Source: Promethearchaeota archaeon (GTDB lineage Archaea > Asgardarchaeota > Lokiarchaeia > Sigyniarchaeales > SOKP01). Taken from it: DNA of 30,688 bases. Shown one piece after another: positions 9,401-30,191 of this stretch (positions within the stretch are counted from its first letter, which is position 1; each line of letters opens with the position of its first letter). Below the pieces are notes generated by a model. The model did not search any database, was not told the DNA's origin, and saw nothing but the letters and a program-made list of their open reading frames with translations. The stretch covers positions 1 through 30,688 of the forward strand of contig JAFGGO010000038.1 of assembly GCA_016930515.1 (NCBI GenBank), written 5' to 3'. The position numbers were made by a program, and so were the translations under genes.

Positions 9401-9491
9401 ATCTGTTAAAGATTTAGAAGGATTGTTAAACGATAAATGGGATTTCGTCAGAGAAAAAGCAAAAATTGCCATCGAAAAAATTAAGGGTTAG
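6480..9491 (+). CDS. Giant HEAT/PBS-lyase-like repeat protein (1003 aa)
   Basis: About 30 tandem ~31-aa repeats (A.E.LI..L.D....VR..AA.ALG.IGD) over nearly the whole length; Lys-rich N-terminus; TTG start. Confidence 0.92.
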   Translation: MNSDKNDIIDKSAIIKKTPIKKGKTKEDLKAKKIQNKNIKGLIKTLKRDDVEARNLAKKALVAFGEDAVETLLDLLKNSKNKMLQAEVAEVLGMIGTRRAIYDLIQVLTDDYEELRIKAAKALGSIGDTSAAFALIQSLRDENRKVRSTAAKSLNFILDAKLSEQLASGNERTLRRIGDNNTIQMLIRSLKDDSFKVRRKASEVIDKIYDISVVDKILSKKERDQKGLESLIELLLGNNEQLNRNIAWALGTIGDPRAVVPLILLLKERYQAGREEAVEALGKIGDTRALIALIRALKDENTRVKKKANWAVGNMSDKNGLLGITKILGKIDMISPIELESNLPKVDDISAIERLSKALDENNSKSQERAIWALSKLGDTRASDIIVNKLNEPSLLCQKEAIIALGDVGKANSIQVLLKFLNHEDIILSDSARIALRKLNERWGITPFIEAMKSENDFIRSKALEFIKTSQSDELINHLIEILKEEDVPEIRAKAAWALGWSRNSKAIEPLIQALKREKSKEVKSEIAWALGWIKNPRSVEPLLEIVDDENDIVRSAAIRSLGLLRDPKSVPALIDALNDPISFIQADAAKSLGKIRDDKAVEALIQKLKSSEYQLVLENTIKALEKIGASQAVEPLVEMLKHESPEIKNFAESALKNIRDKKAVQPLVKALQDDDSEVRGDVAVLLGNIGDKEATESLIALMKDTDATVRSDAAIALGNLGDPKAVDQLIEKLDDLNNIVRSKVADALGRIRDEKAVDALIKKLKDSSINVRISAADALGRIGSVKGVDALIESLKDEDIVVKREAIKSLGLIGEEKALNPLIEMLKQEDDTIRKETIISLGFIGSPKASSQIIQILKEGSSQKLLKEAIKFFGLVHDTQAVSPLIELINHDKEAIRVEVANSLGYLRDAKAEWPLIELLNDTKPTVRAAAAEALGKLGRVKAVEPLLHLLKDDSKVVRAKAAEALGDIGSTKSVKDLEGLLNDKWDFVREKAKIAIEKIKG

Positions 9492-10327: not shown

Positions 10328-12046
10328 TTATCCCAAGCGATTCCAAAAATTATTTAATTCATCTTTTGATATCGAAACCCTTAGATTTAAGGGTTCAGAA
10401 CTTTCTTCTCGAAAGAATTTAGGTAACATATTTTGATCTCGAGGGATTCCTGCTTTCTCGTTAAATTTAAGTTCCATTTTAAGAATCTCTTTTCCTATTA
10501 TAACAACCTCATCAGCGGAAAGGTTTAATCCGTACATAGCGTTAAGTGCATTAGTTAATAATTCAATCATTTCAAAGTTTACTCCAATAAAATAACAACA
10601 ACCCATCGAATCAAGAATTGCAATACAAATCTGTAATTCATAAGATAATTCAAGCTTGTTATTATCTTCATTATATTCTCCATATTCTTTATCTAGGTGA
10701 GCCTTACGACCAACAATAGCGGGACCAGAAGTATGATCTGCACCCATTGGTGACGTGGCGTAAGTAATCCCCATTGCTTTAAACACGCGAGGATCGTACG
10801 CAGATAATCCTTGACCCTTAACATGGGGAACTCTCTTTGCATGTAAAGTAATACCTATGTGCTTGACTCCGTTACCATATAAAAATCCTACCTCCGTGCC
10901 GTTACGGATTTCTTCGTTTAAAATCTTTAAAACTGTTGTAGAATCACCCCATTTTAGTTGATTACAATCCATAGCAACTCCAATTGTTCCACCAAATTCG
11001 ATGGTATCGACACCTATATCGTCACAATATCTATTAATTAAGGCGAGAGCGTCTAAGTCGTTTATCAAGAGATTGGAGCCATTTAATGCTATCGTCTCGT
11101 ATTCCATGCTAGCTGTTACAAAATTTCCATTTGAATCCATTACTTGATTTGAGCATTTAATAACACATGTAGGACTACAAGGTAATCTATTTTTACCGTT
11201 TCGAGAAACTATAAGTTCATGAAGTTTTTCACCTGAGATCTTCTCAACATCTTCGTAAGATCCTCTTTTAAAATTCTCTGTGGGAAGTCCTCCATAAATA
11301 TTCATCCCTTGCGTTAGGTTTGGAGTGCCATATATTGAGAACCATTCCTTTGATTCTGCTAATTCCTTGGCAAAAGGTTTAACGATGGCTTTAAATTTGT
11401 TACGATCTACAATCGAGATTTTTGATTTTCTAGTTGGAATGATTACAACAGCCTTTAGCTTTTTTGATCCCATAACAGCGCCTAATCCACCTCTAGCGGC
11501 ATGACGACTTGGATATCCCTCTAGATCGTTAGCAGCAACGCTGGCAGACTTCATGGTTAATTCTCCCGCGGGACCTATTGAGAATATTCCGATTTTTTTA
11601 CCATAAACCTCGTAAAGCTTTTCGGATAATTCATAATTACCAATTCTTGCGTATTCTTGAGCTTCTTCAAGTCTTATATTATCGTCCTCAATTACCAGAA
11701 GTTTTAAGCGTGGTGAAATTCCTTCAAACACCAGAGCTCGAATGCCATGTAAAGCAAGCATCATTGAAGGTCTTCCTCCCACATTTGCCTCTTTAATGCC
11801 GTTAGTAAGCGGACTTTTTGCGCCCACCGAAGCTCGTCCAGAACACGGAAATGAACTCCCTGTTAATAAGCCATTTGAAATTATTAGTTTATTATCTTCC
11901 CCAAGAGGATCGCAATCTGGCGGTACCTCATCGTAAACGAGGTGGGAAGTGAGACCTCTTGCTCCATATAAATAATAAATAGAATCTTTCGAAATTTTTT
12001 GGTTAACAATTGTTGCTTTTTTTAGATTCACGCGAACTATATCCAT
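10328..12046 (-). CDS. aor: Aldehyde:ferredoxin oxidoreductase family (tungstopterin enzyme)
   Basis: AKSPLTNGIKEANVGG, SIGPAGE, AARGGLGAVMGSKKLKA, CSPTCVIKC (Fe-S), EYET, DDIGVDTI, YATSPMGADH, DSMGCC. Confidence 0.93.
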   Translation of the reverse strand: MDIVRVNLKKATIVNQKISKDSIYYLYGARGLTSHLVYDEVPPDCDPLGEDNKLIISNGLLTGSSFPCSGRASVGAKSPLTNGIKEANVGGRPSMMLALHGIRALVFEGISPRLKLLVIEDDNIRLEEAQEYARIGNYELSEKLYEVYGKKIGIFSIGPAGELTMKSASVAANDLEGYPSRHAARGGLGAVMGSKKLKAVVIIPTRKSKISIVDRNKFKAIVKPFAKELAESKEWFSIYGTPNLTQGMNIYGGLPTENFKRGSYEDVEKISGEKLHELIVSRNGKNRLPCSPTCVIKCSNQVMDSNGNFVTASMEYETIALNGSNLLINDLDALALINRYCDDIGVDTIEFGGTIGVAMDCNQLKWGDSTTVLKILNEEIRNGTEVGFLYGNGVKHIGITLHAKRVPHVKGQGLSAYDPRVFKAMGITYATSPMGADHTSGPAIVGRKAHLDKEYGEYNEDNNKLELSYELQICIAILDSMGCCYFIGVNFEMIELLTNALNAMYGLNLSADEVVIIGKEILKMELKFNEKAGIPRDQNMLPKFFREESSEPLNLRVSISKDELNNFWNRLG

Positions 12047-14155: not shown

Positions 14156-15082
14156 ATGAACGAAATCTATAGAGCTCGTCTGCGAGATAAAACTGAACCT
14201 GATATTCAATCTACTTATAAACAATGTTGCGATAGTCCTTACATAGAATCTAGAGACGGAAACAAGGTCTGCATGAATTGCGGCATGATTTCCGAAAGGA
14301 CATTTGTAGGAAACGAGAGGAGAGCTTATACAATCGAGGAAATTCAAAGCAGGAGGCGGACGGAACCAAGATGGAGGGATTTTGGACCGAGAACCATGTT
14401 ACCAACAACAAAAACAGATTCTAAAGGTAAATCTCTAGGTCCAAAAGAACAAGCGTTATTTTCAAGATTATCAAAAATACAGAATTCTTTAATATCAAGC
14501 ATAGAAAGAAACTTTTGGGAAGCGAAACCCAAATTAAAAATGCTTACGTCAAAACTCAACATCCCAGAATACATATCAGAAACCGCTTGGAAAATATATA
14601 GCGTAGTCGCCAAGAAAAAATTAACCATGGGAAGATCAATTAACGGATTCATATCTGGCTCGCTCTATGCCGCAATACGAGTACACGATTTCCCTCGATT
14701 ATTGGACGAGATTTGTGAAGCTTCTTTAACTCCTCGAAGAACCGTTCACAGGAGCTTAGCAATGATAATTCGAGAGGTACTACCCGAACTTAATTTATCT
14801 TACCAACCCATAACCGCTGAAAAACTCGTATTTCGATTTGGAAACGAATTAGATTTACCCATTCAAATACAAAAAAACGCCATCAACTTGCTCATTGAGG
14901 CTTCAAAAAACGGATTAAAAAGGACTGGAAAAGATCCAAAGGGATTAGCAGCAGCGTGCATCTACATTGCTGCAAAAGAAGGACTCGTGAGAAAAACCCA
15001 AACAAAAGTAGCAGACATCGCAAAAATAACTGAAGTAACTCTACGTAGTAGAGCAAAGCAAATCAAACTCAAGCTTAATTAG
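14156..15082 (+). CDS. tfb: Transcription initiation factor B (TFB/TFIIB)
   Basis: Zn ribbon CCDSP...VCMNCG; two cyclin repeats (MGRSINGFISGSLYAAIR; TGKDPKGLAAACIYIAA); C-terminal HTH TQTKVADIAKITEVTLRSR. Confidence 0.93.
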   Translation: MNEIYRARLRDKTEPDIQSTYKQCCDSPYIESRDGNKVCMNCGMISERTFVGNERRAYTIEEIQSRRRTEPRWRDFGPRTMLPTTKTDSKGKSLGPKEQALFSRLSKIQNSLISSIERNFWEAKPKLKMLTSKLNIPEYISETAWKIYSVVAKKKLTMGRSINGFISGSLYAAIRVHDFPRLLDEICEASLTPRRTVHRSLAMIIREVLPELNLSYQPITAEKLVFRFGNELDLPIQIQKNAINLLIEASKNGLKRTGKDPKGLAAACIYIAAKEGLVRKTQTKVADIAKITEVTLRSRAKQIKLKLN

Positions 15083-15805: not shown

Positions 15806-16783
15806 TTGAGTGATAAAAAAAAAAGTAGGGAATGCACCCACGAGAATACTCGCCTTGATGGTGGCTATCTTGTATGTCAAGATTGTGGAATTGTATTAGA
15901 CGAGAATTTAGCCTTTGAAAAATATAATCCCGTTAGCGAATTTTCTGATTCCCAAAGAGATTACGAAATTAGTATTCGGAGGAGAGATTCCAGAGCAACA
16001 CAAGATCCAAAAATAAAAGAACAGTATAATAAAATACTCACTCTTGAAAAATGGTTCAAGGATTCAAAATCTACTTTTTCAGAACAGAAACGACTTATAG
16101 AGCTTTTAAAAGGATATAAAATTGGATTGAACATCGATAATGTTAAATATCAAGAAATCAAGGATAGATATCTAAAATATAACAAGAATCACAAAAAACC
16201 GTATCAGAACATGGTAATTATTTTTCTAGCCATTATCTGGATGGAGGTAAAAGACACCACGAACATCCGCATTGAACGCTTTATAGACGCTTGTAATGAG
16301 TTGGGACATAAAGTGAACAAAAAGATGCTCAATAACGCAATGCTCAAAATTAAAAACATTGAAATTAAAAAGAAAAAGAAAAAATTTAAAAACATGTCTG
16401 ATATTGAGGCAGAGATTAAAGATAAAATAAAGATTTTGCTCCAAAAAAATTTAAACGACATCTCCTTCGATAAAATCGCTGAATTTTTCAAAAACAAGGA
16501 CCAATACGAAAAATTCAAGATAAAAATGCTTTTATTAGCTGATCAAATTCTTCAAGATATCTCATACGAAGATATTAAAAACATGAACTATAAGGCTTTT
16601 ACAGCGGGATTATTATATTATATTGGGCGCGCAATTGACCAACGGAAAATATTCACGCAATCCTTAATTGAAGAGACAACGAAATTTTCTAGCACGACTA
16701 TTAGAAAAAAATACAAAATGCTAAAAGAAATTTTGGGGAATAAATACTTTTCAAGGAACGAGAATAAATATGAAGTACACTAG
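15806..16783 (+). CDS. Divergent TFB/TFIIB-like paralog
   Basis: TFIIB-type Zn ribbon CTHE...YLVCQDCGIVLDE; C-terminal cyclin repeat and HTH (KAFTAGLLYYIG...FTQSLIEETTKFSSTTIRKKYKML) matching the TFB pattern TQ..IA.....T.R.RYK.L. Confidence 0.75.
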   Translation: MSDKKKSRECTHENTRLDGGYLVCQDCGIVLDENLAFEKYNPVSEFSDSQRDYEISIRRRDSRATQDPKIKEQYNKILTLEKWFKDSKSTFSEQKRLIELLKGYKIGLNIDNVKYQEIKDRYLKYNKNHKKPYQNMVIIFLAIIWMEVKDTTNIRIERFIDACNELGHKVNKKMLNNAMLKIKNIEIKKKKKKFKNMSDIEAEIKDKIKILLQKNLNDISFDKIAEFFKNKDQYEKFKIKMLLLADQILQDISYEDIKNMNYKAFTAGLLYYIGRAIDQRKIFTQSLIEETTKFSSTTIRKKYKMLKEILGNKYFSRNENKYEVH

Positions 16784-16826: not shown

Positions 16827-19688
16827 ATGGTTTCGTTTCTTGAATACAACGACGAATTAGCAGATAAATCGATCGAGGAACTAGAAAAATTTTTCAATAC
16901 TGATATAACGAGAGGATTAAGTTCTTTAGAAGCAAAAAACAGGCAGATTAGCGGGGGATACAATGAAATACCTAAACCACGTAAATCAGTTTGGAAAATT
17001 TACCTTTCTCCAATCTTTAATTTTCTAATCGTAATTTTAATAATCACATCTTTTATAGTAATTATTCTTGGATCTCCAGAATCCACATATGTAACGCTTT
17101 TCATGATAGTTATCAATTCTATCATGGTGATTATTCAACAATATCGGGCTCAGAAAGCGATTGAGTCTCTTAGGAAAATATCCGCCCTAAAAGCTACCGT
17201 CACGAGAGACGGTTCAAGAAAGGAAATATTTGTTAGGGAGATCGTACCAGGAGACATCATAACGGTTGTTCAAGGAAATAAAATCCCCGCTGATGGAAGG
17301 ATCGTAAAAGCACTCAATTTCACGGTGAACGAAGCTCCTTTAACTGGGGAAAGTGATTCTATTGAAAAAAAAGAAAAAATTCCTTTTCAAAGTGAGGGAG
17401 ACGATCAGGTTTATATGGGAACATTTGTTGAAACAGGAAAGGGCACCATTCTAATAACTAATACTGGAATTAAATCGAAATTAGGTGAGATCTCGAATTC
17501 TCTTAGCGAGATGGGATTTATTGAAGATATACCCTTGACGAGAAAATTAAATAGATTAGGATACATTCTGGGGATCGTCGTCTTAATTAATTTATTTATT
17601 CTTATCATATATAAGCTTATATTTTTATTTCTTGAAAAGAATTTTACCTCCACGGCTATCAGCAAGGTTCTTGCAAGCTCTATAATTAGAGCAATGAATG
17701 TAATTCCCGTTAACTTACCATTACTCACAACCCTCATAATCATAACTGGTGTTATTAGTATGGCAAAGAACGGGGTGATAATTAAGAATTTATCCTCAAT
17801 TGAATCCCTTGGAAGAGTTTCCGTGCTATGTTCTGATAAAACGGGCACTATAACACAAAACGAGATGACGGTCGAGAAGTTTTGGATAAATGGAAAAGAG
17901 CACGATCTTGAAAATTTTATAACTATTTTTTCAGGTTTGAGAGCTGAAATCGATGAAAACGAATTGTATACAGATCTTACTTTTCAAAGATTTATTGGGT
18001 CATTGGTTGTGAATAATAACGTAGAATTTTCAAACTTGCAAGAAAATCATAATCCAAATTTATTAAATGACCAAATTAAACAAAAGACATTAATCGGCTC
18101 TGGTACGGAAATTTCTTTAATTAATTTTGTAGAAAATATGGGATTTGATACTTCAGAAATCCGTAACGAATTCACAATAATTGCTCAGTTTCCTTTCAAA
18201 TCCGATTTAAAAAGGATGACGACAATTTGTAACATTAAAAATCAAAACAATGCGATCATATTGTTTATGAAAGGCGCACCTGAAATAGTTCTTGATTATT
18301 GTACTCACTTCGAAGTGAAAGAAAAATTAGAATTGCTTGATAACACTATCAAACAATACATATTAAATAGAGTTATAGTTAGGGCGCAACAAGGATATAG
18401 GATATTGGGGTTAGCATTTAAAAAAATGACTCCTGAAAAAGAATACCTAAGAGAAGATGTAGAAAAGGATCTTACTTTTTTAGGCTTTGTTACGATTAAA
18501 GATCCTCCTAGATTTGGAGTAAAACAATCCGTAAAAGAATGCAAGCACGCAGGTATTAAAGTAATAATGGTAACTGGAGACCACCCCACTACGGCAAAAA
18601 CTATCGCATCCGAGGTGGGGATACTCCAAGATGGGGATAAGGAACTAGTTGTTGAAGGATTAAATATCTATAATTTTAAGGGAAATAACTTCCTCAATAT
18701 ATCTGTATTTTCTCGCATTAGTCCCTTGAGTAAGGAAGTGATTGTAGAACAATACCAAGAACACGGAAAAGTCGTAGCCATGACAGGAGATGGAATTAAT
18801 GATGCCTTGGCGCTTAAAAAAGCAGAAATAGGGATTGCAATGGGAATAAAAGGCACGGACACTGCTAAAGAAACCGCCGACATGATCATTTCTGACGATA
18901 ATTTTGTTTCGATCGTCAAGGGTATACGGATTGGTAGGGGAACCTTTGCAAAAATACGAGTCATAATTTATTTTTTTGTGTGTATGAACTTGATGGAAGC
19001 ATTTATTTATTTTTTTTACGAATTTGTACCTGGTTTTGATTTATTTTCATCTAACTGGCAACACATTTATGTATTTACTATCATCCATGGTTTGATTTCC
19101 CTCCCATTAATTTTTGACAAGCCACCAATCAATATCATGATGGAAAAACCTAAGGATAAAGAAGAGATTCTCAATAAAAAAATATGGTATTTACTAATCA
19201 TTCAAGCGTTCTTAAATGGCGTAGGTATTGTTTTAGCGCTACAGCTAACCCTTGGAGGATTTTTTCCATTGAATGATTTCAACACGAATCCCGCCCTTAG
19301 CTATATTCCCGCTAATGTTGTTTCAAATACGCAATTGCTTGAAATGAAAGCCCGTACGATGTTCTTCACTACTTTATTTATTGTTGAAACAAATTTCGTA
19401 TGGTCTTTCAGACGAATAAATAGTTCAGTCCTAAAAAGTTTTAAAGAAGAATTCAACCTCGTATTACTTTTCGTGTGTCTTTTTACTCTAAGCATGCATT
19501 TTTTGCTTGTAATTTTTTCCTTTCCATTAAATTTCATTATAAATGACGTAATGGGACTTAATTTACAACTGAATTTCATGTTTCTTAGTTTTAGCGATTG
19601 GATGGCATGTATTGCTCTAGCGTGCATTGGATTAATCGGATTTGAAGTGGTTAAAGCCCTTGCTCGTAAAAAAAAAATTGTTTTTTAA
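16827..19688 (+). CDS. P-type ATPase, P2-like scaffold with non-canonical transport site (paralog 1)
   Basis: TGES, CSDKTGT (D337), KGAPE, DPPR, TGD, MTGDGIND; 10-TM layout; M4 reads IPVNLP instead of IPEGLP. Confidence 0.93.
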   Translation: MVSFLEYNDELADKSIEELEKFFNTDITRGLSSLEAKNRQISGGYNEIPKPRKSVWKIYLSPIFNFLIVILIITSFIVIILGSPESTYVTLFMIVINSIMVIIQQYRAQKAIESLRKISALKATVTRDGSRKEIFVREIVPGDIITVVQGNKIPADGRIVKALNFTVNEAPLTGESDSIEKKEKIPFQSEGDDQVYMGTFVETGKGTILITNTGIKSKLGEISNSLSEMGFIEDIPLTRKLNRLGYILGIVVLINLFILIIYKLIFLFLEKNFTSTAISKVLASSIIRAMNVIPVNLPLLTTLIIITGVISMAKNGVIIKNLSSIESLGRVSVLCSDKTGTITQNEMTVEKFWINGKEHDLENFITIFSGLRAEIDENELYTDLTFQRFIGSLVVNNNVEFSNLQENHNPNLLNDQIKQKTLIGSGTEISLINFVENMGFDTSEIRNEFTIIAQFPFKSDLKRMTTICNIKNQNNAIILFMKGAPEIVLDYCTHFEVKEKLELLDNTIKQYILNRVIVRAQQGYRILGLAFKKMTPEKEYLREDVEKDLTFLGFVTIKDPPRFGVKQSVKECKHAGIKVIMVTGDHPTTAKTIASEVGILQDGDKELVVEGLNIYNFKGNNFLNISVFSRISPLSKEVIVEQYQEHGKVVAMTGDGINDALALKKAEIGIAMGIKGTDTAKETADMIISDDNFVSIVKGIRIGRGTFAKIRVIIYFFVCMNLMEAFIYFFYEFVPGFDLFSSNWQHIYVFTIIHGLISLPLIFDKPPINIMMEKPKDKEEILNKKIWYLLIIQAFLNGVGIVLALQLTLGGFFPLNDFNTNPALSYIPANVVSNTQLLEMKARTMFFTTLFIVETNFVWSFRRINSSVLKSFKEEFNLVLLFVCLFTLSMHFLLVIFSFPLNFIINDVMGLNLQLNFMFLSFSDWMACIALACIGLIGFEVVKALARKKKIVF

Positions 19689-19834
19689 AAAGAATAATTG
19701 ATAATTTTCAAGTCTTTTTAATGAAAGCTTTTAGACCCAATTTAATAAGTATGACTTATCAATAATAATAAATACAAAAAGTCTTTCTATTATTACTATC
19801 AATATTTTCAAATTGTGTTAGAAGTAAATTTTTC

Positions 19835-22747
19835 GTGGATGGAAAAGCAATGGAAACAACATATTATGCTAAAGAATTAGAAGAAATTTATAGAGAACTG
19901 GATACGAATCCAACTAAAGGCCTTTCGAATGATGAAGCTAAATCTCGACTTTTAAAAGACGGATACAACGAGATTCCAAAGGTTTCAAAGGGATTTATAA
20001 AAATATATCTTGCTCCCTTGTTTAATTGGTTAATAGTTATTTATTTATTCGCCACACTAATAATGATTATCTTTCAAATAATAGGATGGGGTGGAGACTA
20101 TGTCATGATAACCCTTACTTTGGGCATAGTTGCTTTAAATTGCATTGTTGCCATCGTACAACAATATAGAGCAACAAAGAAATTAAATGCTTTGCGAGAA
20201 CTCTCGGCACCAACAACCACTATTGTCCGAGATGGCCAAAAGATAGATATAGACTCCAGAAACATCGTTAAGGGAGATATTTTAGTATTAAATCAAGGAG
20301 ATAAAATCCCTGCTGATGCAAGGATAATCACTGCTTCTAACTTAGAAGCAAACGAATCTTCCTTAACTGGAGAAAGCGAACCTGCAAGAAAAAATTCTGA
20401 CGGAAATCCCTTGCCAGCTACGGAAATAATACCTATAGGCTCAAGGAAGAACATGGTTTTTTACGGAACCTTCATCACTATAGGAAACGGAAAAGCTGTT
20501 GTCGTAAAGACTGGAGCAAACACGGAAATAGGACGATTATCGTACGAATTAGAGCAGGCAGGTACGAGCGATATTCCTATTCGTCAAAAAATGAACCATT
20601 TTGGTAAATGGCTTGGTATAAGTGTTTTACTTTTATGGGTAATATTAATCATTTACGAGTTAATTAAAGGGGCGATAGTTTCAGGGTCCGAAGAGCTTAA
20701 TTTAGTAGGAAGTTTAAACGCCGCAATGGACCTCATGCCTATCAATTTACCATTGCTAACAACCATCGTCTTATTGACAGGACTGGTTGCCATGGCTAAA
20801 TCAGGAGTTATTGTTAGAAATTTAGCGTCTGTTGATAGCTTGGGGAGAGTGAGTGTAGTATGCTCAGATAAAACGGGGACCCTTACAAAAAATCAAATGA
20901 GCGTCCAACATATTTGGACTAACGGCTCAATCTTTAAGGTCACGGGAGCAGGTTATAATCCAGAAGGTCAAATCATTAATATTAACGATCCCAAGAATTT
21001 CATATATGTAAAACATGTGGAAGATCACCCCGAACTAAAACTTCTATTGATTTCGGGTTTTTTAAATAATAATTCTGCTTTAGTGAAAAACGAAATCGAA
21101 GTAGGGTCGAAGAAAATCGATACATGGAATGTAGTAGGTTCACCTACTGAAGGAGCGCTCATGGTGTTGTTCCAAAAAGGGATGGGAGATTACATCTTAG
21201 AAGATTACGAACAAATAAAAGAATATCCGTTCGATTCAAAGATCAAGAGAATGACCAAAATCTTTCGTCAAAATGAAAAACATTATTCCTTTACGAAAGG
21301 TGCTTCAGAAGTATTATTACCCTTGAGTTCAAAAATTCTTTATAAAAACGCAAACATCGAATTTACTGAAGACCTTAAGAAGGAGATAATGAATAAGGTC
21401 GATTATTACGCTGCTCAAGGATACAGAATATTAAGCCTTTGTTATAAAGAGTTTTATGCGCTACCAGCTCACGGAGACGACGATCGCGATCATTTTGAAT
21501 CCGATTTAATATATCTTGGTTTTGTTACTATCTTGGATCCTCCGCGTGAAAAAGTTAAAGAGTCCGTAGAAGAATGTCATAGAGCTGGTGTTGATGTAGT
21601 AATGATTACGGGAGACTCCCCTACAACAGCAAAATCCATTGCGAGTCAAATTTCCATTATAAAAAACGAGGACGAACTAGTTTATGAAGGTAAGGACATT
21701 AAAGACGCCATAAAATCTCCAGATTTCGATAAGATCAAGGTATTTGCTAGAGTTTCTCCTGAGCACAAGCAAGACATTGTCAACAAGTACAAGGAAGAAA
21801 AAAGAGTGGTAGCCATGACTGGAGACGGTGTTAACGACGCCTTGGCCTTAAATCTTGCGGATGCGGGTATTGCCATGGGTATTACGGGTACAGATGTTGC
21901 CAAGGAAGCCTCAGACATGGTCATATCCGACGATTCATTTAACTCAATAGTTACGGGCATTGAACAGGGAAGGGGTATTTTTGCGAAAATCAGAGCGATT
22001 ATCGTGTTCTTCATTTGTATTAATGTTTTCGAAGGAGTCGCACAAATCATGCTGTATGTCATATTAGGATATCCATACCTGCTAAGTCCAGAATATTACA
22101 TGATGTGGGTTTTGTTATCTATAACTATTCACACTTTCCCTAGCTTGGGACTAGTTTTTGATGATATTCCTAAAGAAGTAATGGAAGAGAAGCCGAAGGA
22201 CTCTGAAGAGATTTTATCAGGAAACACATTGCGATTAATGGTGCCATTTGGGATTTTACTCGTAATTACCATGATTATAACTTACTTTATAGTATACAAT
22301 GGAGTATATCCCGTTTTTCCAGAGAATTTTAATTTCGGTTCATTAAATGATGCATATCTATATAGTCCATCAACAATAATGGAAGGAACAAATCGACAAG
22401 TTGCTAAAACGCTAACAATGCTAATGACGGTATTATTCATTTGTGAATCGTTTTTAATCCTTCAAATTAGGCGTCCTAACAAGTCCTTAATTAGAAGCAT
22501 TAAAGAAGATGGCAATAAGTATATTTATTTTACGATTGCTTTGGTATTTATATTCCTTCTTTTATTAATGTACTTCCCATATCTTCAAGTTTCTCTGAAA
22601 ATCCCTTACGAAAATCAGAGAAGGACTTTCGCCTTGATGTTTCTTACTGCTGGAGATTGGCTCGTTTGCTTCTTACTCTCGGCGATTTGCGTCGTCGGTT
22701 TTGAGATTTACAAATTTTATTTTCGTAGAAAAGGAGAAACATTCTAA
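19835..22747 (+). CDS. P-type ATPase, P2-like scaffold with non-canonical transport site (paralog 2)
   Basis: TGES, CSDKTGT (D345), KGASE, DPPR, TGD, MTGDGVND; M4 reads MPINLP. Start is GTG 19835 or ATG 19850. Confidence 0.93.
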   Translation: MDGKAMETTYYAKELEEIYRELDTNPTKGLSNDEAKSRLLKDGYNEIPKVSKGFIKIYLAPLFNWLIVIYLFATLIMIIFQIIGWGGDYVMITLTLGIVALNCIVAIVQQYRATKKLNALRELSAPTTTIVRDGQKIDIDSRNIVKGDILVLNQGDKIPADARIITASNLEANESSLTGESEPARKNSDGNPLPATEIIPIGSRKNMVFYGTFITIGNGKAVVVKTGANTEIGRLSYELEQAGTSDIPIRQKMNHFGKWLGISVLLLWVILIIYELIKGAIVSGSEELNLVGSLNAAMDLMPINLPLLTTIVLLTGLVAMAKSGVIVRNLASVDSLGRVSVVCSDKTGTLTKNQMSVQHIWTNGSIFKVTGAGYNPEGQIININDPKNFIYVKHVEDHPELKLLLISGFLNNNSALVKNEIEVGSKKIDTWNVVGSPTEGALMVLFQKGMGDYILEDYEQIKEYPFDSKIKRMTKIFRQNEKHYSFTKGASEVLLPLSSKILYKNANIEFTEDLKKEIMNKVDYYAAQGYRILSLCYKEFYALPAHGDDDRDHFESDLIYLGFVTILDPPREKVKESVEECHRAGVDVVMITGDSPTTAKSIASQISIIKNEDELVYEGKDIKDAIKSPDFDKIKVFARVSPEHKQDIVNKYKEEKRVVAMTGDGVNDALALNLADAGIAMGITGTDVAKEASDMVISDDSFNSIVTGIEQGRGIFAKIRAIIVFFICINVFEGVAQIMLYVILGYPYLLSPEYYMMWVLLSITIHTFPSLGLVFDDIPKEVMEEKPKDSEEILSGNTLRLMVPFGILLVITMIITYFIVYNGVYPVFPENFNFGSLNDAYLYSPSTIMEGTNRQVAKTLTMLMTVLFICESFLILQIRRPNKSLIRSIKEDGNKYIYFTIALVFIFLLLLMYFPYLQVSLKIPYENQRRTFALMFLTAGDWLVCFLLSAICVVGFEIYKFYFRRKGETF

Positions 22748-22867: not shown

Positions 22868-24190
22868 ATGACCAAACCAATTGTATCTATTGTTAAATAC
22901 GAAAAACCTCTTGAATCAGTTCGAAAAGCCATAGATCTCGCAAAAGGGTTCGAGAATCTCCCTTCCAATGCTAAAGTATTCATAAAACCTAACATCGTGT
23001 TTTGGACAAAGGAATGTGACTTTCCAAAATATGGCGCTTTGACCACTTCGAGAGTTGTTGAAGACGTAGTCAAACTCTTAAAAGAAAAAGGCATTAATGA
23101 CATCACGATTGGAGAGGGCGTCGTTGTAGATGATCCTAAAGATAAGGAAACCCCTACTGATGCTTTTGAGAAGCTTGGATATAACACTTTAAAGCAGAAA
23201 TACGGAGTTAAGGTCTATAATATTATGGAAAGACCGTTTGAAAAAGTTGAACTTACTGAAGAACTCACGGTGAAAATGAACGCCGATATGCTCGATTGCG
23301 ATTTTTTCATTGACATTCCCGTTCTTAAAACGCACGCTCAGTGCGTAATAAGTTTAGGCACGAAAAATATTAAAGGACTCATTAGCATCGCTTCTCGGAA
23401 AAAATTTCATAGCCCAGATCCCGATAAGAATCTCGATTATAATGTTGCTCAACTGGCAAACAAAGTTCCTCCAACCTTGGTAATCATTGATGGAATATTT
23501 TCCTTAGAAAGAGGTCCCTCAATCGATGGCAAGGCACATAGGACAAATGTGTTAATAACATCAAAAGATGTTCTTTCAGCAGATTTGGTAGGCTCAAATA
23601 TACTCGAAATCGATCCAAAAAGCGTTCCTCATTTGGTTCAATCAGCGAAGCAAAAAGGTCGACCCTTGGATCTATCGGATATAGAACTCGTAGGTGAAAA
23701 GATAGCGGATTTTGCGGCACCACACGAATGGGATTATGTTTACGCGGGTGATGACGACATGCCCCTTCCCTATCAGAGAGCGGGTATCACGGGGATCAAG
23801 TATCATAAATACGACAAGACGATGTGCACTTACTGCTCGGGACTTAACGGCACGCTTTTAATGGCAGTAAAGATGGGATTCAAAGGAGAACCATTCGATA
23901 ACATCGAAATATTAACCGGAAAAATCTTAGAACCTTCTCCAGGAATGAATAAAACGATCTTAGTCGGACAGTGCCAATATAATAAAAACAAGGATAATCC
24001 ACTGATAAAGGAAAGGATCGTCATACCTGGTTGTCCCCCTCAGGCAGATAAAATTCAAGGAGCACTTGAACAGGCAGGCATTATGGTTCCTCCAGGATTC
24101 TTTGATAACATCGATAAAGGTCCTCTCATGTTCCTCAAGCGATATCAGGGTAATCCTGATTTCGATGAAGAATTATTCCAAGTAAAATAA
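22868..24190 (+). CDS. DUF362 domain protein with a C-terminal Cys-containing (putative Fe-S) module
   Basis: VFIKPNIV, ITIGEG, IPVLKTH...SLGTKNIKG, IIDGI..LERGP, DVLSADLVG; C-terminal CTYC...GQC...IPGCPP. Confidence 0.82.
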   Translation: MTKPIVSIVKYEKPLESVRKAIDLAKGFENLPSNAKVFIKPNIVFWTKECDFPKYGALTTSRVVEDVVKLLKEKGINDITIGEGVVVDDPKDKETPTDAFEKLGYNTLKQKYGVKVYNIMERPFEKVELTEELTVKMNADMLDCDFFIDIPVLKTHAQCVISLGTKNIKGLISIASRKKFHSPDPDKNLDYNVAQLANKVPPTLVIIDGIFSLERGPSIDGKAHRTNVLITSKDVLSADLVGSNILEIDPKSVPHLVQSAKQKGRPLDLSDIELVGEKIADFAAPHEWDYVYAGDDDMPLPYQRAGITGIKYHKYDKTMCTYCSGLNGTLLMAVKMGFKGEPFDNIEILTGKILEPSPGMNKTILVGQCQYNKNKDNPLIKERIVIPGCPPQADKIQGALEQAGIMVPPGFFDNIDKGPLMFLKRYQGNPDFDEELFQVK

Positions 24191-24277: not shown

Positions 24278-25456
24278 ATGGAAAGTAACACCGATAAATC
24301 CCATAAAAAGTTTAGTCTAAGAGAATTAGGGGGTGCACTCGGCGATTGGGGAACTTTAATACCATTCGTTATTGGATATACGGCAATCGTCGGGCTTAAT
24401 CCAGCGGGTTTATTTCTCTGTCTTGGAATTACAAATATCGTTTTAGGTATTAAATATAATTTACCTTTACCCGTTCAACCCCAAAAAACCATAGGAAGTG
24501 TCGCTCTTGCTAATTCTTGGAGTCCTAATTTGGTAATATCAACGGGATTTTTTACGGGAGTTATATGGACGATCTTGGGATTTTCAAAAAAAATAAGCGT
24601 GATTGTGAAGAAAATTCCCGTCCAATCAATTAGGGGAATACAATTAGGTCTTGCGCTTATCTTGGGTTGGACGGCTATTCTTTTATTTATCGATAACATC
24701 ATCTTAGGGTTGGTGTCCCTTTCAATCATAATTCTTTTGATCAAAAGCAAGCAGCTCCCTTCCGCCCTTCTTCTCGTGATTTTAGCTGTTCTTATCGTGT
24801 TTTTTTCTGGTACGCTTCCTATTTCTGAATTTAAATTAACCTTGCCAAAAATTAGTTTATACATCCCCACATTAGAAAATATTGTTTTAGGAATGATTTT
24901 AGCGGGTTTAGGTCAATTAATACTAACTTTAACTAATGTCATGGTAGCAACTGTTGTTTTAATCAAGGATTTGTTCCCTGAAAAAGAGTTCGACGCAAAT
25001 TCTCTGGCTTTAAACATGGGCATCATAAATATTGCATGCCCCTTTATAGGAGGAATGCCCTTGTGCCACGGATCTGGAGGACTTGCTGCCCAATATGCTT
25101 TTGGAGCAAGAACTGGAGGTTCAATGATATTAGAAGGCATAATGGAAATAGTATTAGGATTATTTTTTTCTGAATTTTTGTTAGCTTTTTTTTTATCGTT
25201 TCCGCAGGCAATATTAGGTGCGATGCTCTTATATACCGCCTTTATATTAGCAAAAGTATCTTTTAAAGATTTTAACAAGAGAATTTTTCCAATAACATTA
25301 ATATCTTCCATCCTTTGTTTCCTATTTAACATAACAATAGGATTTATCGTAGGTTTGACTCTATATTACATTTTTAAAAAAAAGATAGAAAAAGAAAATC
25401 TTGAATTGAATGGAGAGAACATCTATAAAGGGTTTGATTTAGAAAAATCGCAGTAA
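24278..25456 (+). CDS. MOT1-family molybdate (or tungstate)/sulfate transporter
   Basis: ELGGALGDWGTLIP, PLPVQPQKTI and GGMPLCHGSGGLAAQYAFGARTGG signature motifs; about 10 TM helices. Confidence 0.88.
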   Translation: MESNTDKSHKKFSLRELGGALGDWGTLIPFVIGYTAIVGLNPAGLFLCLGITNIVLGIKYNLPLPVQPQKTIGSVALANSWSPNLVISTGFFTGVIWTILGFSKKISVIVKKIPVQSIRGIQLGLALILGWTAILLFIDNIILGLVSLSIIILLIKSKQLPSALLLVILAVLIVFFSGTLPISEFKLTLPKISLYIPTLENIVLGMILAGLGQLILTLTNVMVATVVLIKDLFPEKEFDANSLALNMGIINIACPFIGGMPLCHGSGGLAAQYAFGARTGGSMILEGIMEIVLGLFFSEFLLAFFLSFPQAILGAMLLYTAFILAKVSFKDFNKRIFPITLISSILCFLFNITIGFIVGLTLYYIFKKKIEKENLELNGENIYKGFDLEKSQ

Positions 25457-26851: not shown

Positions 26852-29281
26852 ATGAATGATAATATCAAAGGAAAAATGGTTAACACAACAATCGGTTCTA
26901 AGGCTCTAGATAAAGATGGATCGGCAATAAGCGCGTGCCGAGTGGATGTAGAAAGAGCTTATAAGAACGTGAGTAAATTGTTGCAGAAATTTATTCAAGA
27001 TAATGACAAGGAATCGTGGACAGAAATAAAAGTTCACATTAATTACATTTACAATAATTTATCTAAATCATTAATAGCACTTGATCAAGAAACTGGATAC
27101 ATAGCAGAAATTAAAAATAGAACATCAAAGGGTCAAAACCTCTTATTCAAGCCAAACTTAGTAAGCATGGAAAATATAAATCCATATAATCAAGGCTCCG
27201 CCTTCGGAAGCAATGCCGTAACAAATTGGACCGTAATGGCAGCTTTATTAAGATTCTTTCACGATGATGTGGGCATAAGCTATTATAAAATGTCCATGGG
27301 AGAAGCATCGTCCAATTCTGCGTGGTTAGCTGCTCATTATACGCTTTTAAAGGGGAGTAAGGTTACTCCCGAAGCAACAATGGAAGGTCGATCTGACGAT
27401 TTTTACGGTGGTCATGGTTTTTATTTCGTTCGCAAGTATCTCTCTGAAGAGTCGAGTACATCATTAGAAGATGACGCCATGAAAGGTTTCAAGGAAAGCG
27501 TGGCAGGAACTTTCATCCCTCCAGGCTTGGCCTCGGATAAACTTATGGTTTACGATTTAAATAAGCTTTCTGACTCTACAAGGGGTCGAGAGGTTTCAAT
27601 TCTTGATGGAGAAAACTTTAAATCACTCGTCCTACACAAGATCATTATTGGTGGTGACCCAGGGGACCCCGAAGACCTTGCTTTGTATCCTCCACCCGTT
27701 ATAATTAATGTTTCGAAACTCAAGGTTCACACCCAATCTTTAATAACGAACGCTATAAAGAATTTTGGAATAGGATTCTATTCAATGGAAGTGCCCGATG
27801 ATAGTAATACAGATTGGAAATACGCAAAGCCAGATTTCAAGATCCCAACCATTAGATCTCCGATTCCGCATCAAGTTTGGATACCTGAACAGGACCCTAT
27901 TACATTTATTCCCAAAAAAGACGCTAATGGGAAGTATATCGTTAAAAAGACGGGTGGATTGACGGGTACTATTCTTGACATGGTAAAAGCAGTTGTAAAT
28001 CAAGGAATCTACATGCTTCATATCGTTGATAGTATTAATGCTGTTAATCTCGATCACCAAGGAATTGGATTTGGGCGAGAAGTTTCAGAAGGGCTCTTGT
28101 TTGCAAGTCTGGATCCCGTGGCTATTGATCTCTTATGTGCTCGTTATATTTTTAGTAATGTAGGATTAAAAGAGTCAAGAGAAGCGGGGTTAAAAGATGG
28201 AGCTGGGGGTTATTTTCCACAAGCTGTACCTGTTCCAAAATACGATGGATCTCAAATCATAACAGAAAAGGGATACGATTGTCCCATTCAAAGAGATCTC
28301 CTTTTATTGCGTGCAGAACAAGAAGGGTTTGGTAAGAGGGATTATTATGTTGTTGGACATGACGATTTAACGGATAATTCATTGGCCTCTGTTGAGGGAA
28401 GATTAGGTTTTATAAAAGAAGGTCAATTTAACGAAATCATTACAAATACCCTTTATTTCGATATTTACAAACTCCCATGGGACCTACAGAAGACTTTTTT
28501 CAATTATTTAGACGCAATCGAAAAAGTAGAGGGAATCGCTTTAAAACACGATTTTATCGATATTTTTGACGAAGATAAGAACGGTATTGTGGATTTCGAA
28601 GAATTCGGTAAAAAAGGTTTATGGGGAACCACGATGTATATTAACAGTCATTATTTAAGCGCTAGAGGCTTAAAAGACGAGTCTGAAATGTATCGAACCC
28701 TTTTTGCTACCTTGGGAACGAGGTTCCGAAATACGAATCCTAAATGGAATCCAGGAGAGCACGACATCCAACGAGAAAATTCATGGGGGTCGATAACTAT
28801 CTTAGGACTCAACATGTATCAAGCAAGGGAAGAAAAAGACGATCCATTTATTAAAGAGTTGAAATGGGGAAAGGGTAAATGGCCAAGCTTTACATTTACT
28901 CACAATATTTACGTGCACCAACAACTTTATGGTTTTAAATTTCCCGCAAGCATAACAACGACAAGTTTGTATGGAATAGCATTTTGCAATGCAGATTACA
29001 CCCAAAATAGAAAAAAATATATTGGACCCATTCGAGGATTTCCTGAACCAAACTCGGTCGATAAATATTTAGAAGCCGTATCAAATGGAGAACAAGAACC
29101 ATTAGATTTCACATTCTATGTACCAATAGGATATGGCGTAAACGGAAAAATCCCAAATGTCCAGGAAACCTCAGATCCGGAAAAGATTCTCACGGTAAAG
29201 TTCAATGGAGGGACCATTCGATGGCCAGATGCTCGACCAGCACCCTTAAAAAAAAAAGAGTTAGATCTAGTGATTGAATAG
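26852..29281 (+). CDS. Large DUF362 domain protein with an EF-hand-like loop
   Basis: LLFKPNLV, MSMGEA, KLKVH..SLITNAIKN.GIG, ASLDPVAIDLLCA; DEDKNGIVDFEE loop. Confidence 0.78.
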   Translation: MNDNIKGKMVNTTIGSKALDKDGSAISACRVDVERAYKNVSKLLQKFIQDNDKESWTEIKVHINYIYNNLSKSLIALDQETGYIAEIKNRTSKGQNLLFKPNLVSMENINPYNQGSAFGSNAVTNWTVMAALLRFFHDDVGISYYKMSMGEASSNSAWLAAHYTLLKGSKVTPEATMEGRSDDFYGGHGFYFVRKYLSEESSTSLEDDAMKGFKESVAGTFIPPGLASDKLMVYDLNKLSDSTRGREVSILDGENFKSLVLHKIIIGGDPGDPEDLALYPPPVIINVSKLKVHTQSLITNAIKNFGIGFYSMEVPDDSNTDWKYAKPDFKIPTIRSPIPHQVWIPEQDPITFIPKKDANGKYIVKKTGGLTGTILDMVKAVVNQGIYMLHIVDSINAVNLDHQGIGFGREVSEGLLFASLDPVAIDLLCARYIFSNVGLKESREAGLKDGAGGYFPQAVPVPKYDGSQIITEKGYDCPIQRDLLLLRAEQEGFGKRDYYVVGHDDLTDNSLASVEGRLGFIKEGQFNEIITNTLYFDIYKLPWDLQKTFFNYLDAIEKVEGIALKHDFIDIFDEDKNGIVDFEEFGKKGLWGTTMYINSHYLSARGLKDESEMYRTLFATLGTRFRNTNPKWNPGEHDIQRENSWGSITILGLNMYQAREEKDDPFIKELKWGKGKWPSFTFTHNIYVHQQLYGFKFPASITTTSLYGIAFCNADYTQNRKKYIGPIRGFPEPNSVDKYLEAVSNGEQEPLDFTFYVPIGYGVNGKIPNVQETSDPEKILTVKFNGGTIRWPDARPAPLKKKELDLVIE

Positions 29282-29399
29282 AATAGACGAAAATTATATT
29301 TATTTAATATTTCTTTTAATGATTTCAAAAACAATGATATAACAGAAGAAATTTATACAAAATAAAAATTATTAATAATATTAACGAGTGAGTTATTTT

Positions 29400-30191
29400 A
29401 TGGAATACTACAAGATTACACTTGAGAAAGATTTATTAGAATGGGGAAAAGTACTGTCAGTTGGAGAATTAGTTCAAGAAATAAACGATAAACTCGTTAA
29501 TAAGGGATTTAATAAAACTAACTCTAGGCTTGTTTTTAGCGTATGTTCTGATGATTGTAATAGATTAGCAGAACGAGAAACGATAGAAAAAGCCTTAACA
29601 AAGATTTTTAATCGAGAATTTCATTTGGGAGGTCTTGCAGCCTATCCCGTAGGAGGAGTTTCGGGAATAGTCGCTGCAAGTCATCATCCACCAGATTTGA
29701 AAACCCTTGATGGTAGAAAGGAACGAGCGGGTAATCTAATCATTTTCGCAAGCCCCCATTTTGGTATAATTAAGAAAGAAACCCTGATTTACGGAAGTTT
29801 CATAAGACCTGGACAACAAAAACCAACTGCGTCCTGTGGTGCAATGATGGGATTTCTAAGCGCTTTGAAAGCCGCAAAAAACACAAATAAACTACGTCCT
29901 AGAGTTGAAGATACAAGTTTGGACCCATCTAAAAAAGTACTTTACAAGCAATTAATTGCAAATTATTCAGATCGACTCAACACACTCCTCAAATTAGACG
30001 ATGTTAACAATCAAGTGCTCGAATTATTTAAAATCAACCATGACCTTGTTGAAAGTAAGCTCTTACAAATGATCGCTGAATTCAAGAAAAAAGAACCCTT
30101 TTCAGGAAACATGGCATTCATCAGCGGAATCACCATTAATACTACGGATAAGGATTATTTTATTTTAAAGCAAATCAAATACTTAAATTAG
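29400..30191 (+). CDS. LCIB/LCIC-family (theta-class) carbonic anhydrase-like protein
   Basis: SVCSDDCN, FHLGGLAAYPVGGVSG...HHPPD, FASPHFGI and RPGQ....SCGAM, giving the Cys/His/Cys Zn ligands of the LCIB family. Start is ATG 29400 or GTG 29388. Confidence 0.8.
   Translation: MEYYKITLEKDLLEWGKVLSVGELVQEINDKLVNKGFNKTNSRLVFSVCSDDCNRLAERETIEKALTKIFNREFHLGGLAAYPVGGVSGIVAASHHPPDLKTLDGRKERAGNLIIFASPHFGIIKKETLIYGSFIRPGQQKPTASCGAMMGFLSALKAAKNTNKLRPRVEDTSLDPSKKVLYKQLIANYSDRLNTLLKLDDVNNQVLELFKINHDLVESKLLQMIAEFKKKEPFSGNMAFISGITINTTDKDYFILKQIKYLN

Follow-up and report, generated by a model that had tools for sequence, protein, structure and literature searches.

What is carried by a P-type ATPase in which the glutamate of membrane helix M4 and the aspartate of M6 have both been replaced, with the catalytic engine left intact? 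The question is raised by two adjacent genes in a 30,688 nt stretch of DNA (hereafter, the window) from a Promethearchaeota archaeon (assembly GCA_016930515.1, contig JAFGGO010000038.1, positions 1 to 30,688 of the forward strand). Few transporters are understood as well as P-type ATPases, whose division into subfamilies follows the ligands on M4 and M6; an M6 Asp is common to the pumps for Ca2+, Na+/K+, H+/K+, H+ and Mg2+. The two genes belong to a previously undescribed clade, an Asgard-restricted sister group of the prokaryotic P2A-like Ca2+ pumps in which the transport site has been rebuilt as a unit (the PxN/His clade), and their products almost certainly move something other than calcium.

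The genes are arranged head to tail on the + strand, separated by a spacer of 147 nt:

16827..19688, + strand: paralog A (P0001), 953 aa, complete P-type ATPase of P2 architecture, PxN/His clade, upstream member of the tandem pair
19835..22747, + strand: paralog B (P0002), 970 aa, complete P-type ATPase of P2 architecture, PxN/His clade
17343..17354, + strand: TGES, dephosphorylation motif of the A domain, paralog A
20366..20377, + strand: TGES, paralog B
17835..17849, + strand: DKTGT with the phosphorylated Asp337, paralog A
20867..20881, + strand: DKTGT with the phosphorylated Asp345, paralog B

The start of paralog B is ambiguous, as the longest open reading frame begins with a GTG at 19835 (970 aa) and the public protein with an ATG at 19850 (965 aa). 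Both proteins carry the same set of Pfam domains (Cation_ATPase_N, E1-E2_ATPase, Cation_ATPase, Hydrolase and Cation_ATPase_C), each scoring over its gathering threshold, and together with ten transmembrane (TM) helices and the P2 fold of the structure models (see later) this identifies the P2-type architecture. Membership in the superfamily of P-type ATPases (HAD-IC) is established by the catalytic motifs and by the superfamily model TIGR01494, the sole NCBIfam model that was passed, on which the pair reached 270.6 and 281.1 bits (cut-off 62.3). The motifs are found at residues 173 (TGES), 337 (DKTGT), 482 (KGA), 559 (DPPR), 583 (TGD) and 654 (GDGIND) of P0001, and at residues 178, 345, 488, 568, 592 and 663 (GDGVND) of P0002. 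Judged from their sequences, both genes are intact and encode catalytically competent P-type ATPases. The duplication that gave rise to pumps A and B is old, since the two proteins share 40% identity and fall into separate, well-supported subclades; in the trees described below, that of P0001 includes a Helarchaeota protein, while P0002 sits in a large Loki-type group. Orthologs of P0001 (49–57% identity) retain every motif, and the catalytic and pocket residues are kept in the orthologs of both paralogs.

The transport site was compared with that of SERCA and across a set of 122 homologs, consisting of 120 clusters that are 62–74% identical to P0002 plus P0001 and P0002 themselves, in which P302, N304, P306, N730, E733, H766 and E871 of paralog B are invariant, far more than chance would produce. 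The residues concerned are:

17706..17720, + strand: M4 P294-V-N-L-P298, paralog A; Val at the SERCA E309 position and Asn at the G310 position
20738..20752, + strand: M4 P302-I-N-L-P306, paralog B; P, N and P invariant in the 122 homologs
18987..18998, + strand: M5 N721-L-M-E724, paralog A; equivalents of SERCA N768 and E771
22022..22033, + strand: M5 N730-V-F-E733, paralog B; invariant in the 122 homologs
19086..19088, + strand: codon (CAT) of His754 in M6, paralog A; SERCA D800 position
22130..22132, + strand: codon (CAC) of His766 in M6, paralog B; aligns with the M6 Asp of LMCA1 and of ATP12A, invariant in the 122 homologs
19386..19388, + strand: codon of Glu854 in M8, paralog A; SERCA E908 equivalent
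22445..22447, + strand: codon of Glu871 in M8, paralog B; invariant in the 122 homologs and present in 30 of the 32 family representatives

A first-pass annotation of the window had already pointed out these residues and the catalytic motifs, and on re-checking all of them were found to be correct, as were their coordinates. It had placed the Val and Ile at the E309 position from the distance between the M4 Pro and the phosphorylated Asp, which is 43 residues in both paralogs; the same offset yields PEGLP in about 100 canonical relatives. A HMMER alignment with LMCA1 of Listeria leads to the same placement, with I303 on the Glu of PEAL, and sets H766 on the Asp of INLVND. An independent HMMER alignment, of the C-terminal third with ATP12A (P2C), pairs E733 with the M5 Glu and H766 with the latter of the two Asp residues in IDLGTD; E871 falls on the M8 Gln, the counterpart of SERCA E908. 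The replacement of the M6 Asp by His that had been proposed is thus seen in both alignments, and in neither is an acidic residue restored at the E309 or D800 position. The M6 Asn and Thr positions are occupied in the pair by S/F and I, respectively, and paralog A lacks the M6 Pro.

AlphaFold2 models of both proteins were confident (P0002: predicted local distance difference test 86.3, predicted TM-score 0.81; P0001: 83.4 and 0.76) and displayed ten TM helices in a P2 fold. M4 is unwound at the P-x-N motif in both (the break is at 291–296 in P0001), and in the P0002 model M6 is unwound at 764–767, around His766, as it is in solved P2 pumps. The residue equivalences are thus drawn from the two independent alignments and these helix breaks as well as from the spacing. 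When the P0002 model was searched with Foldseek, the top matches were hSPCA1 and SERCA2b in E2P-like states (TM-scores of 0.77–0.79), and Na,K and H,K pumps in E2P-like states were retrieved as well (0.75–0.79 overall); a feature search of the ESM Atlas returned nothing more specific than 'P-type ATPase'.

In SERCA, site II is formed by E309, N796 and D800 together with M4 carbonyls, and site I by N768, E771, T799, D800 and E908. A scan for positions that are conserved in the family yet different in its canonical relatives returned the ion-path and site-II positions of SERCA and few other membrane positions. In M1, Gln (SERCA Q56) has become Pro61; in M2, Glu (E109) has become Gln110; in M4, Glu (E309) is replaced by a hydrophobic residue at 303 (I, V, L, F or W across the clade) and Gly (G310) by Asn304; and in M6, Asp (D800) has become His766, with His in 31 of 32 family representatives against Asp in 98 of 102 canonical sequences. 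The changes in M1 and M2 and that of the M4 Gly extend the list given by the first-pass annotation. The M8 Glu is nearly fixed in the family, and the two buried glutamates, of M5 and M8, are kept at 94–100%.

To assess the extent of the family, 1.84 billion representatives (50% identity) were searched exhaustively. About 35–40 clusters match over the full length with at least 550 bits, and these bear the coupled signature, that is, M4 P-[IVLFW]-N-[ILF]-[PV], M5 N..E, M6 His and M8 Glu, so that the homolog search suggested earlier has found the motif conserved both among these and in the 122 close homologs. A partial departure is seen in cluster P0139, which has Met in place of the M4 Asn. Beneath the family the scores drop stepwise to proteins (the nearest 100 or so) that all have PEGLP in M4 and N..TD in M6. 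The carriers of the signature occupy one side of a single branch, with a FastTree support of 100 (75 rows), and the same branch is recovered by IQ-TREE under LG+G4 (56 rows, 882 columns) with a support of 99 in the Shimodaira-Hasegawa-like approximate likelihood ratio test. The groups on these trees were defined by the signature itself, so a single origin suffices to explain it and the support values are not an independent statistic. The trees hold the clade, its nearest PEGLP relatives and, as outgroup, a P3A-like pump of the same genome, and placement relative to P2B, P2C, P2D, P3A, P4 and P5 rests on scores of hidden Markov models (HMMs). In both trees and searches the nearest relatives are PEGLP Ca-type pumps.

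All named homologs come from metagenome-assembled genomes of Promethearchaeota, Loki-, Thor-, Hel-, Hermod-, Hod- or Heimdallarchaeota, and the window itself has a low G+C content and carries TFIIB and aldehyde:ferredoxin oxidoreductase genes, in keeping with its Asgard origin. In a sample of 301 genomes from across the phylum, representing 30 GTDB families, matches at the level of the family (E < ~1e-190) are found in 13 families, to which most of the genomes belong; five genomes were checked from families whose matches were no better than intermediate (E ~1e-150), and they have canonical PEGLP pumps only and no divergent members. A basal subgroup with P-[FW]-N-F-P comprises Promethearchaeota and Helarchaeota sequences, and in the sole subclade without a named member, the contig bears genes for an Arf-like GTPase and a class I lysyl-tRNA synthetase, which are typical of Asgard genomes. 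No family members were found outside the Asgard archaea, with the proviso that unnamed metagenomic clusters might include some. The PxN/His clade is nearly universal in Lokiarchaeia-like Asgard lineages, usually as two old paralogs.

Loss of the classical ion ligands might suggest that these proteins no longer transport anything, having become sensors, for example, or being in slow decay with the ATPase core kept for another purpose, and the longer branch of paralog A (0.44–0.58) and its missing M6 Pro could be taken in the same sense. Against this, the catalytic motifs and the remaining pocket residues are strictly conserved over about 37 clusters and hundreds of genomes, the open frames are full-length and without stops, and the models of both proteins are confident, so we regard a non-transporting role as very unlikely. 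Since the signature marks one clade and is kept by both paralogs, the sequences support selection rather than decay as the source of the substitutions, as the first-pass annotation had argued.

The database name of the family presents a second alternative, namely that these are ordinary Ca2+ (or Ca2+/Mn2+) pumps with unusual ligands. JGI and NCBI label the relatives as Ca2+-transporting or cation-translocating, the top HMM and PDB matches are Ca2+ pumps of the PMR1 type, the SERCA type and LMCA1, and N, E and E of site I are retained. The likeness to P2A pumps (LMCA1, PMR1/SPCA, SERCA) is broad, and covers domain order, the ten predicted TM helices, the catalytic motifs, the 43-residue spacing, the P-x-x-L-P frame of M4, the N..E of M5, the best sequence and fold matches, and the position as sister group in trees. 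The differences are concentrated in the site itself, where the M4 Glu has given way to I/V/L/F/W, the M4 Gly to Asn, M6 N..TD to x..xH, the M1 Gln to Pro and the M2 Glu to Gln; the C-terminal part, M7–M10, matches only in full-length relatives. Neither the PEGLP of M4 nor the N-x-x-(T/N)-D ligands of M6 that mark P2A pumps are present, and the equivalog scores fall far short. The PMR1-type model TIGR01522 gave 408.9 and 471.6 bits (cut-off 798.3; canonical relatives 609–786) and the SERCA-type model TIGR01116 gave 382.6 and 435.0 bits (cut-off 703.4; canonical relatives 604–732), so that even the better of the two models leaves the pair at 409–472 bits against cut-offs of 703–798. All side-chain ligands of site II, which is the only site of single-site Ca2+ pumps, have been lost, His does not coordinate Ca2+ according to established coordination chemistry, and the same genome encodes two canonical Ca-type pumps. 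Ordinary Ca2+ transport is, in our view, quite unlikely.

Neither paralog reaches any NCBIfam subfamily cut-off, which together with the separate clade bears out the proposal that this combination of residues fits no characterised subfamily. Literature searches on P-type ATPase subfamilies of Asgard or other archaea found no description of the clade, and searches with the motif strings gave unrelated words only. A paper on the Asgard transportome confines its mention to 'orthologs of a putative Ca2+ ATPase TC 3.A.3.2.21', and the Asgard pumps do not appear in a 2023 review of open questions in the field. Under its annotation as 'Ca2+-transporting ATPase', the family has served as an argument for the importance of Ca2+ signalling to Asgard archaea (PMC7997004). 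That annotation is probably wrong, and the signalling inference should not rest on PxN/His genes.

Among the remaining P2 pumps, the P2D (ENA) Na+ pumps of fungi, mosses and protists are an instructive case, having IPAS in M4 and no Glu there, yet carrying alkali cations; their M6 Asp (D860) is needed, and their M5 Glu and Asn are essential (PMC10779151). They share with the family the missing M4 Glu, and P0002 covers the IID model over its full length in a single stretch, but ENA pumps are eukaryotic and keep the M6 Asp where the family has His, and the scores on TIGR01523 (342.6 and 427.1 bits) are well below the cut-off of 645. The ENA precedent also modifies an assumption of the first-pass annotation, that P2 pumps need both the PEGL Glu and the M6 Asp: as regards the Glu this is too strong, since ENA pumps do without it, although they keep the Asp (PMC10779151). 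The P2C alpha subunits of Na+,K+ and H+,K+ pumps resemble the pair in the C-terminal third (M5–M10), for which ATP12A is the best solved relative, and in a basic motif after M8 (I-R-R-P in the family, I-R-K-T-R-R in P2C); however, P2C pumps have PEGLL in M4 and two Asp in M6, neither of which is found in the pair, and TIGR01106 gave 345 and 368.8 bits against a cut-off of 946. The P3A H+-ATPases also lack the M4 Glu (PIAMP-type) and have a single ionisable site, but they keep the M6 Asp and an M5 Arg where the family has the M6 His and M5 N..E, and the pair scores 320.1 and 337.9 bits on TIGR01647 (cut-off 615.5).

A hydrophobic M4 gate is also a feature of P4 flippases, and we considered whether the pair could be flippase-like or other non-metal pumps, with a lipid, a polyamine or another organic compound as substrate and perhaps a kinship with the ancestors of P4 and P5. 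The M4 motif P-I-N-[IL] resembles the P-I-S-L of P4, as in both the Pro is followed by Ile (+1), a small polar residue (+2) and Leu (+3). In addition, the cation path has lost three acidic residues, and the clade is restricted to Asgard archaea, which of all archaea are most closely related to eukaryotes. The resemblance is limited to those three M4 positions. The A domain has TGES and not the DGET of P4, the terminal domains are of P2 type (Cation_ATPase_N and Cation_ATPase_C) with no PhoLip_ATPase domains, there is no CDC50-like partner, and two buried glutamates are conserved, unlike in the P4 core. On the P4 model TIGR01652 the pair scores 113 and 109.5 bits and the family 89–113, against 89–118 for canonical Ca pumps and a cut-off of 431, and on the P5 model TIGR01657 the corresponding values are 235.3 and 247.1, 223–247, 201–274 and 618, so there is no special affinity with either class; the double Pro of the P5 motif PP(E/A)LP is absent from the pair. 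With PEGLP Ca-type pumps as the nearest relatives in trees and searches, a flippase-like activity is unlikely, and the likeness would be one of function by analogy. A bolder version, in which the clade would be a surviving Asgard lineage already off metal-ion transport (with a lipid, polyamine or peptide-like substrate handled by a hydrophobic M4 gate and a neutralised pocket) and a prokaryotic relative or functional forerunner of the P4 and P5 classes that are otherwise found only in eukaryotes, is very unlikely.

For the M6 His there is a precedent outside P2. P1B-4 pumps have an invariant M6 His in the transport site, which has been proposed to be a ligand and/or a built-in counter-ion (PMC8880997), and they are the only described P-type ATPases that we found with such a residue (PMC8880997; PMC10654040). 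The likeness to P1B-4 (sCoaT, CtpD; M6 HEGxT) is one of mechanism, the homology being distant: P1B-4 pumps have eight TM helices and SPC in M4 as opposed to the ten-TM P2 architecture, and the P1B models gave 161–246 bits, below their cut-offs.

The reading that we favour, and judge to be probably correct on the sequence evidence, is that the family consists of P2-like one-site cation pumps for an ion other than Ca2+, with N, E, H and E as ligands and the His serving as a ligand or a built-in counter-charge. With every site-II side chain removed, classical site II would be abolished: the M4 Glu is replaced by a variable bulky hydrophobic residue that may act not as a ligand but as a plug or gate, M6 no longer has its Asn, and the M1 Gln and M2 Glu of the entry path are replaced by Pro and Gln. 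This would leave a single, site-I-like pocket, to which M5 contributes its Asn and Glu, M8 its Glu, M4 the new Asn, and M6 the bridging His. Such a pocket, with two carboxylates, two carboxamides and one imidazole, would have room for one divalent or one to two monovalent ions, and one ion would be bound per cycle. The His may be a ligand in E1 and become protonated in E2, where it would act as a built-in counter-charge and close the cycle with little or no counter-ion. Binding of a cation is favoured because keeping two buried glutamates would otherwise be costly. We infer that the retained residues form the binding site, and likewise the part played by the His, the transport direction and the identity of the ion.

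As to that identity, a monovalent cation (Na+, K+ or H+) is a tentative suggestion, and is favoured by the loss of three acidic residues, the Ser/Thr-rich turn of M6, the P2C-like C-terminal half, the housekeeping-like ubiquity with two paralogs, and the ENA precedent of a P2 pump that lacks the M4 Glu and is able to carry alkali cations (PMC10779151). A divalent transition metal (Mn2+, Fe2+, Co2+, Ni2+ or Zn2+) is only slightly less likely, given the chemistry of His with carboxylates and the P1B-4 precedent. Mg2+ or Ca2+ is improbable, and Ca2+ taken by itself is an unlikely substrate. The host genome (4.0 Mb, 94% complete) encodes, beyond the pair, two canonical pumps (PEGLV with N-I-A-T-D, and PEGLP with N-L-V-T-D), one P1B pump, and a P3A-like pump of 810 aa with PVALP in M4, an Arg in M5 and L-N-D-L-P in M6 (contig C89, L005; G000:C89:27379-29808, + strand). 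With the canonical PEGL/N..TD pumps and the P3A-like pump present, Ca2+ and H+ roles are already covered, and the pair is additional to the usual Ca2+-type and H+-type pumps.

Several points weigh against a one-site cation pump of this kind. To our knowledge, all known single-site P2 pumps use site II and a site-I-only pump is unprecedented; His is a poor ligand for alkali ions; and we know of transition-metal transport on a P2 scaffold only for Mn2+ in PMR1/SPCA, where the ligands are canonical. Two further clusters depart in part from the signature, P0147 being without the M6 His and P0129 (relative L028_6) without the M8 Glu. The pocket geometry is inferred from alignment to SERCA, LMCA1 and ATP12A, and the gene neighbourhoods of the loci compared offered no clue to the substrate. 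The clade represents a new class of transport site on a P2 scaffold, and if the one-site cation pump is borne out, it would be the first case of a P2-type pump whose pocket is site-I-only and contains His.

At least four genera within the host's family preserve the order pump A to pump B, with two genes inserted between them in one genome, and a block consisting of a TFB-like gene, pump A, pump B and a DUF362 gene is conserved inside that family. No beta-subunit-like partner is conserved beside the pair. In other families the neighbours are unrelated and include genes for an S8 peptidase, a UFM1-ligase-like protein, a pantoate transferase, an M1 peptidase and presenilin. Eukaryotic-signature proteins are among the neighbours in other Asgard genomes, namely an E3 UFM1-ligase-like protein (L026:9225-11210), a presenilin homolog (L022:9833-11206) and an Arf/Ras-like small GTPase (L047:22018-22566).

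The gene immediately upstream of the pair is a possible dedicated regulator:

15806..16783, + strand: TFB-like neighbour, 325 aa, 43 nt upstream of paralog A, with an N-terminal C-x-H...C-x2-C zinc ribbon

Its C-terminal segment weakly resembles the last cyclin repeat of TFB and has a weak local match to the TFB of the window; a weak match to the TFIIB zinc ribbon (E 0.0024) was below the cut-off, and no domain reached its Pfam threshold. The gene is directly upstream of the pumps in two further genera (L020, L023); of two loci from a fourth genus, one has it at a distance of three genes (L019) and the other lacks it in the stretch read (L018). A canonical TFIIB/TFB gene at 14156-15082 (+) precedes the TFB-like gene by about 700 nt, with one opposite-strand gene between, so that two TFB-type genes occur within 3 kb; a TFB gene recurs in the block of one related genome that was read (L023).

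Directly downstream of pump B, and syntenic in related genomes, is the gene for the DUF362 protein (22868-24190, +), and further along is a protein of 809 aa (26852-29281, +) in which part of a DUF362 domain is recognised, along with an EF-hand-like stretch that stays below threshold. Also in the block of the pumps are a homolog of the MFS_MOT1 molybdate transporter (24278-25456, +) and an aldehyde:ferredoxin oxidoreductase (10328-12046, -), a tungsten/molybdenum-pterin enzyme; the proximity of both to the pumps is probably mere synteny. Elsewhere in the window are two very large proteins with eukaryote-like HEAT/Armadillo repeats, one of 559 aa (690-2369, +) and one of 1003 aa with 13 HEAT_2 stretches (6480-9491, +), and a homolog of the LCIB/LCIC-type beta-carbonic anhydrases (29388-30191, +; PF18599, E 2e-32), which as a family are best known for their place in the CO2-concentrating mechanisms of algae. 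In another Asgard genome (L046; G038:C1:3571452-3574163, -), a pump of 920 aa with PEGLQ in M4 has the M6 sequence A-I-D-L-G-I-D-I-I-P-S, which is the signature of P2C (Na+,K+-ATPase-like) pumps.

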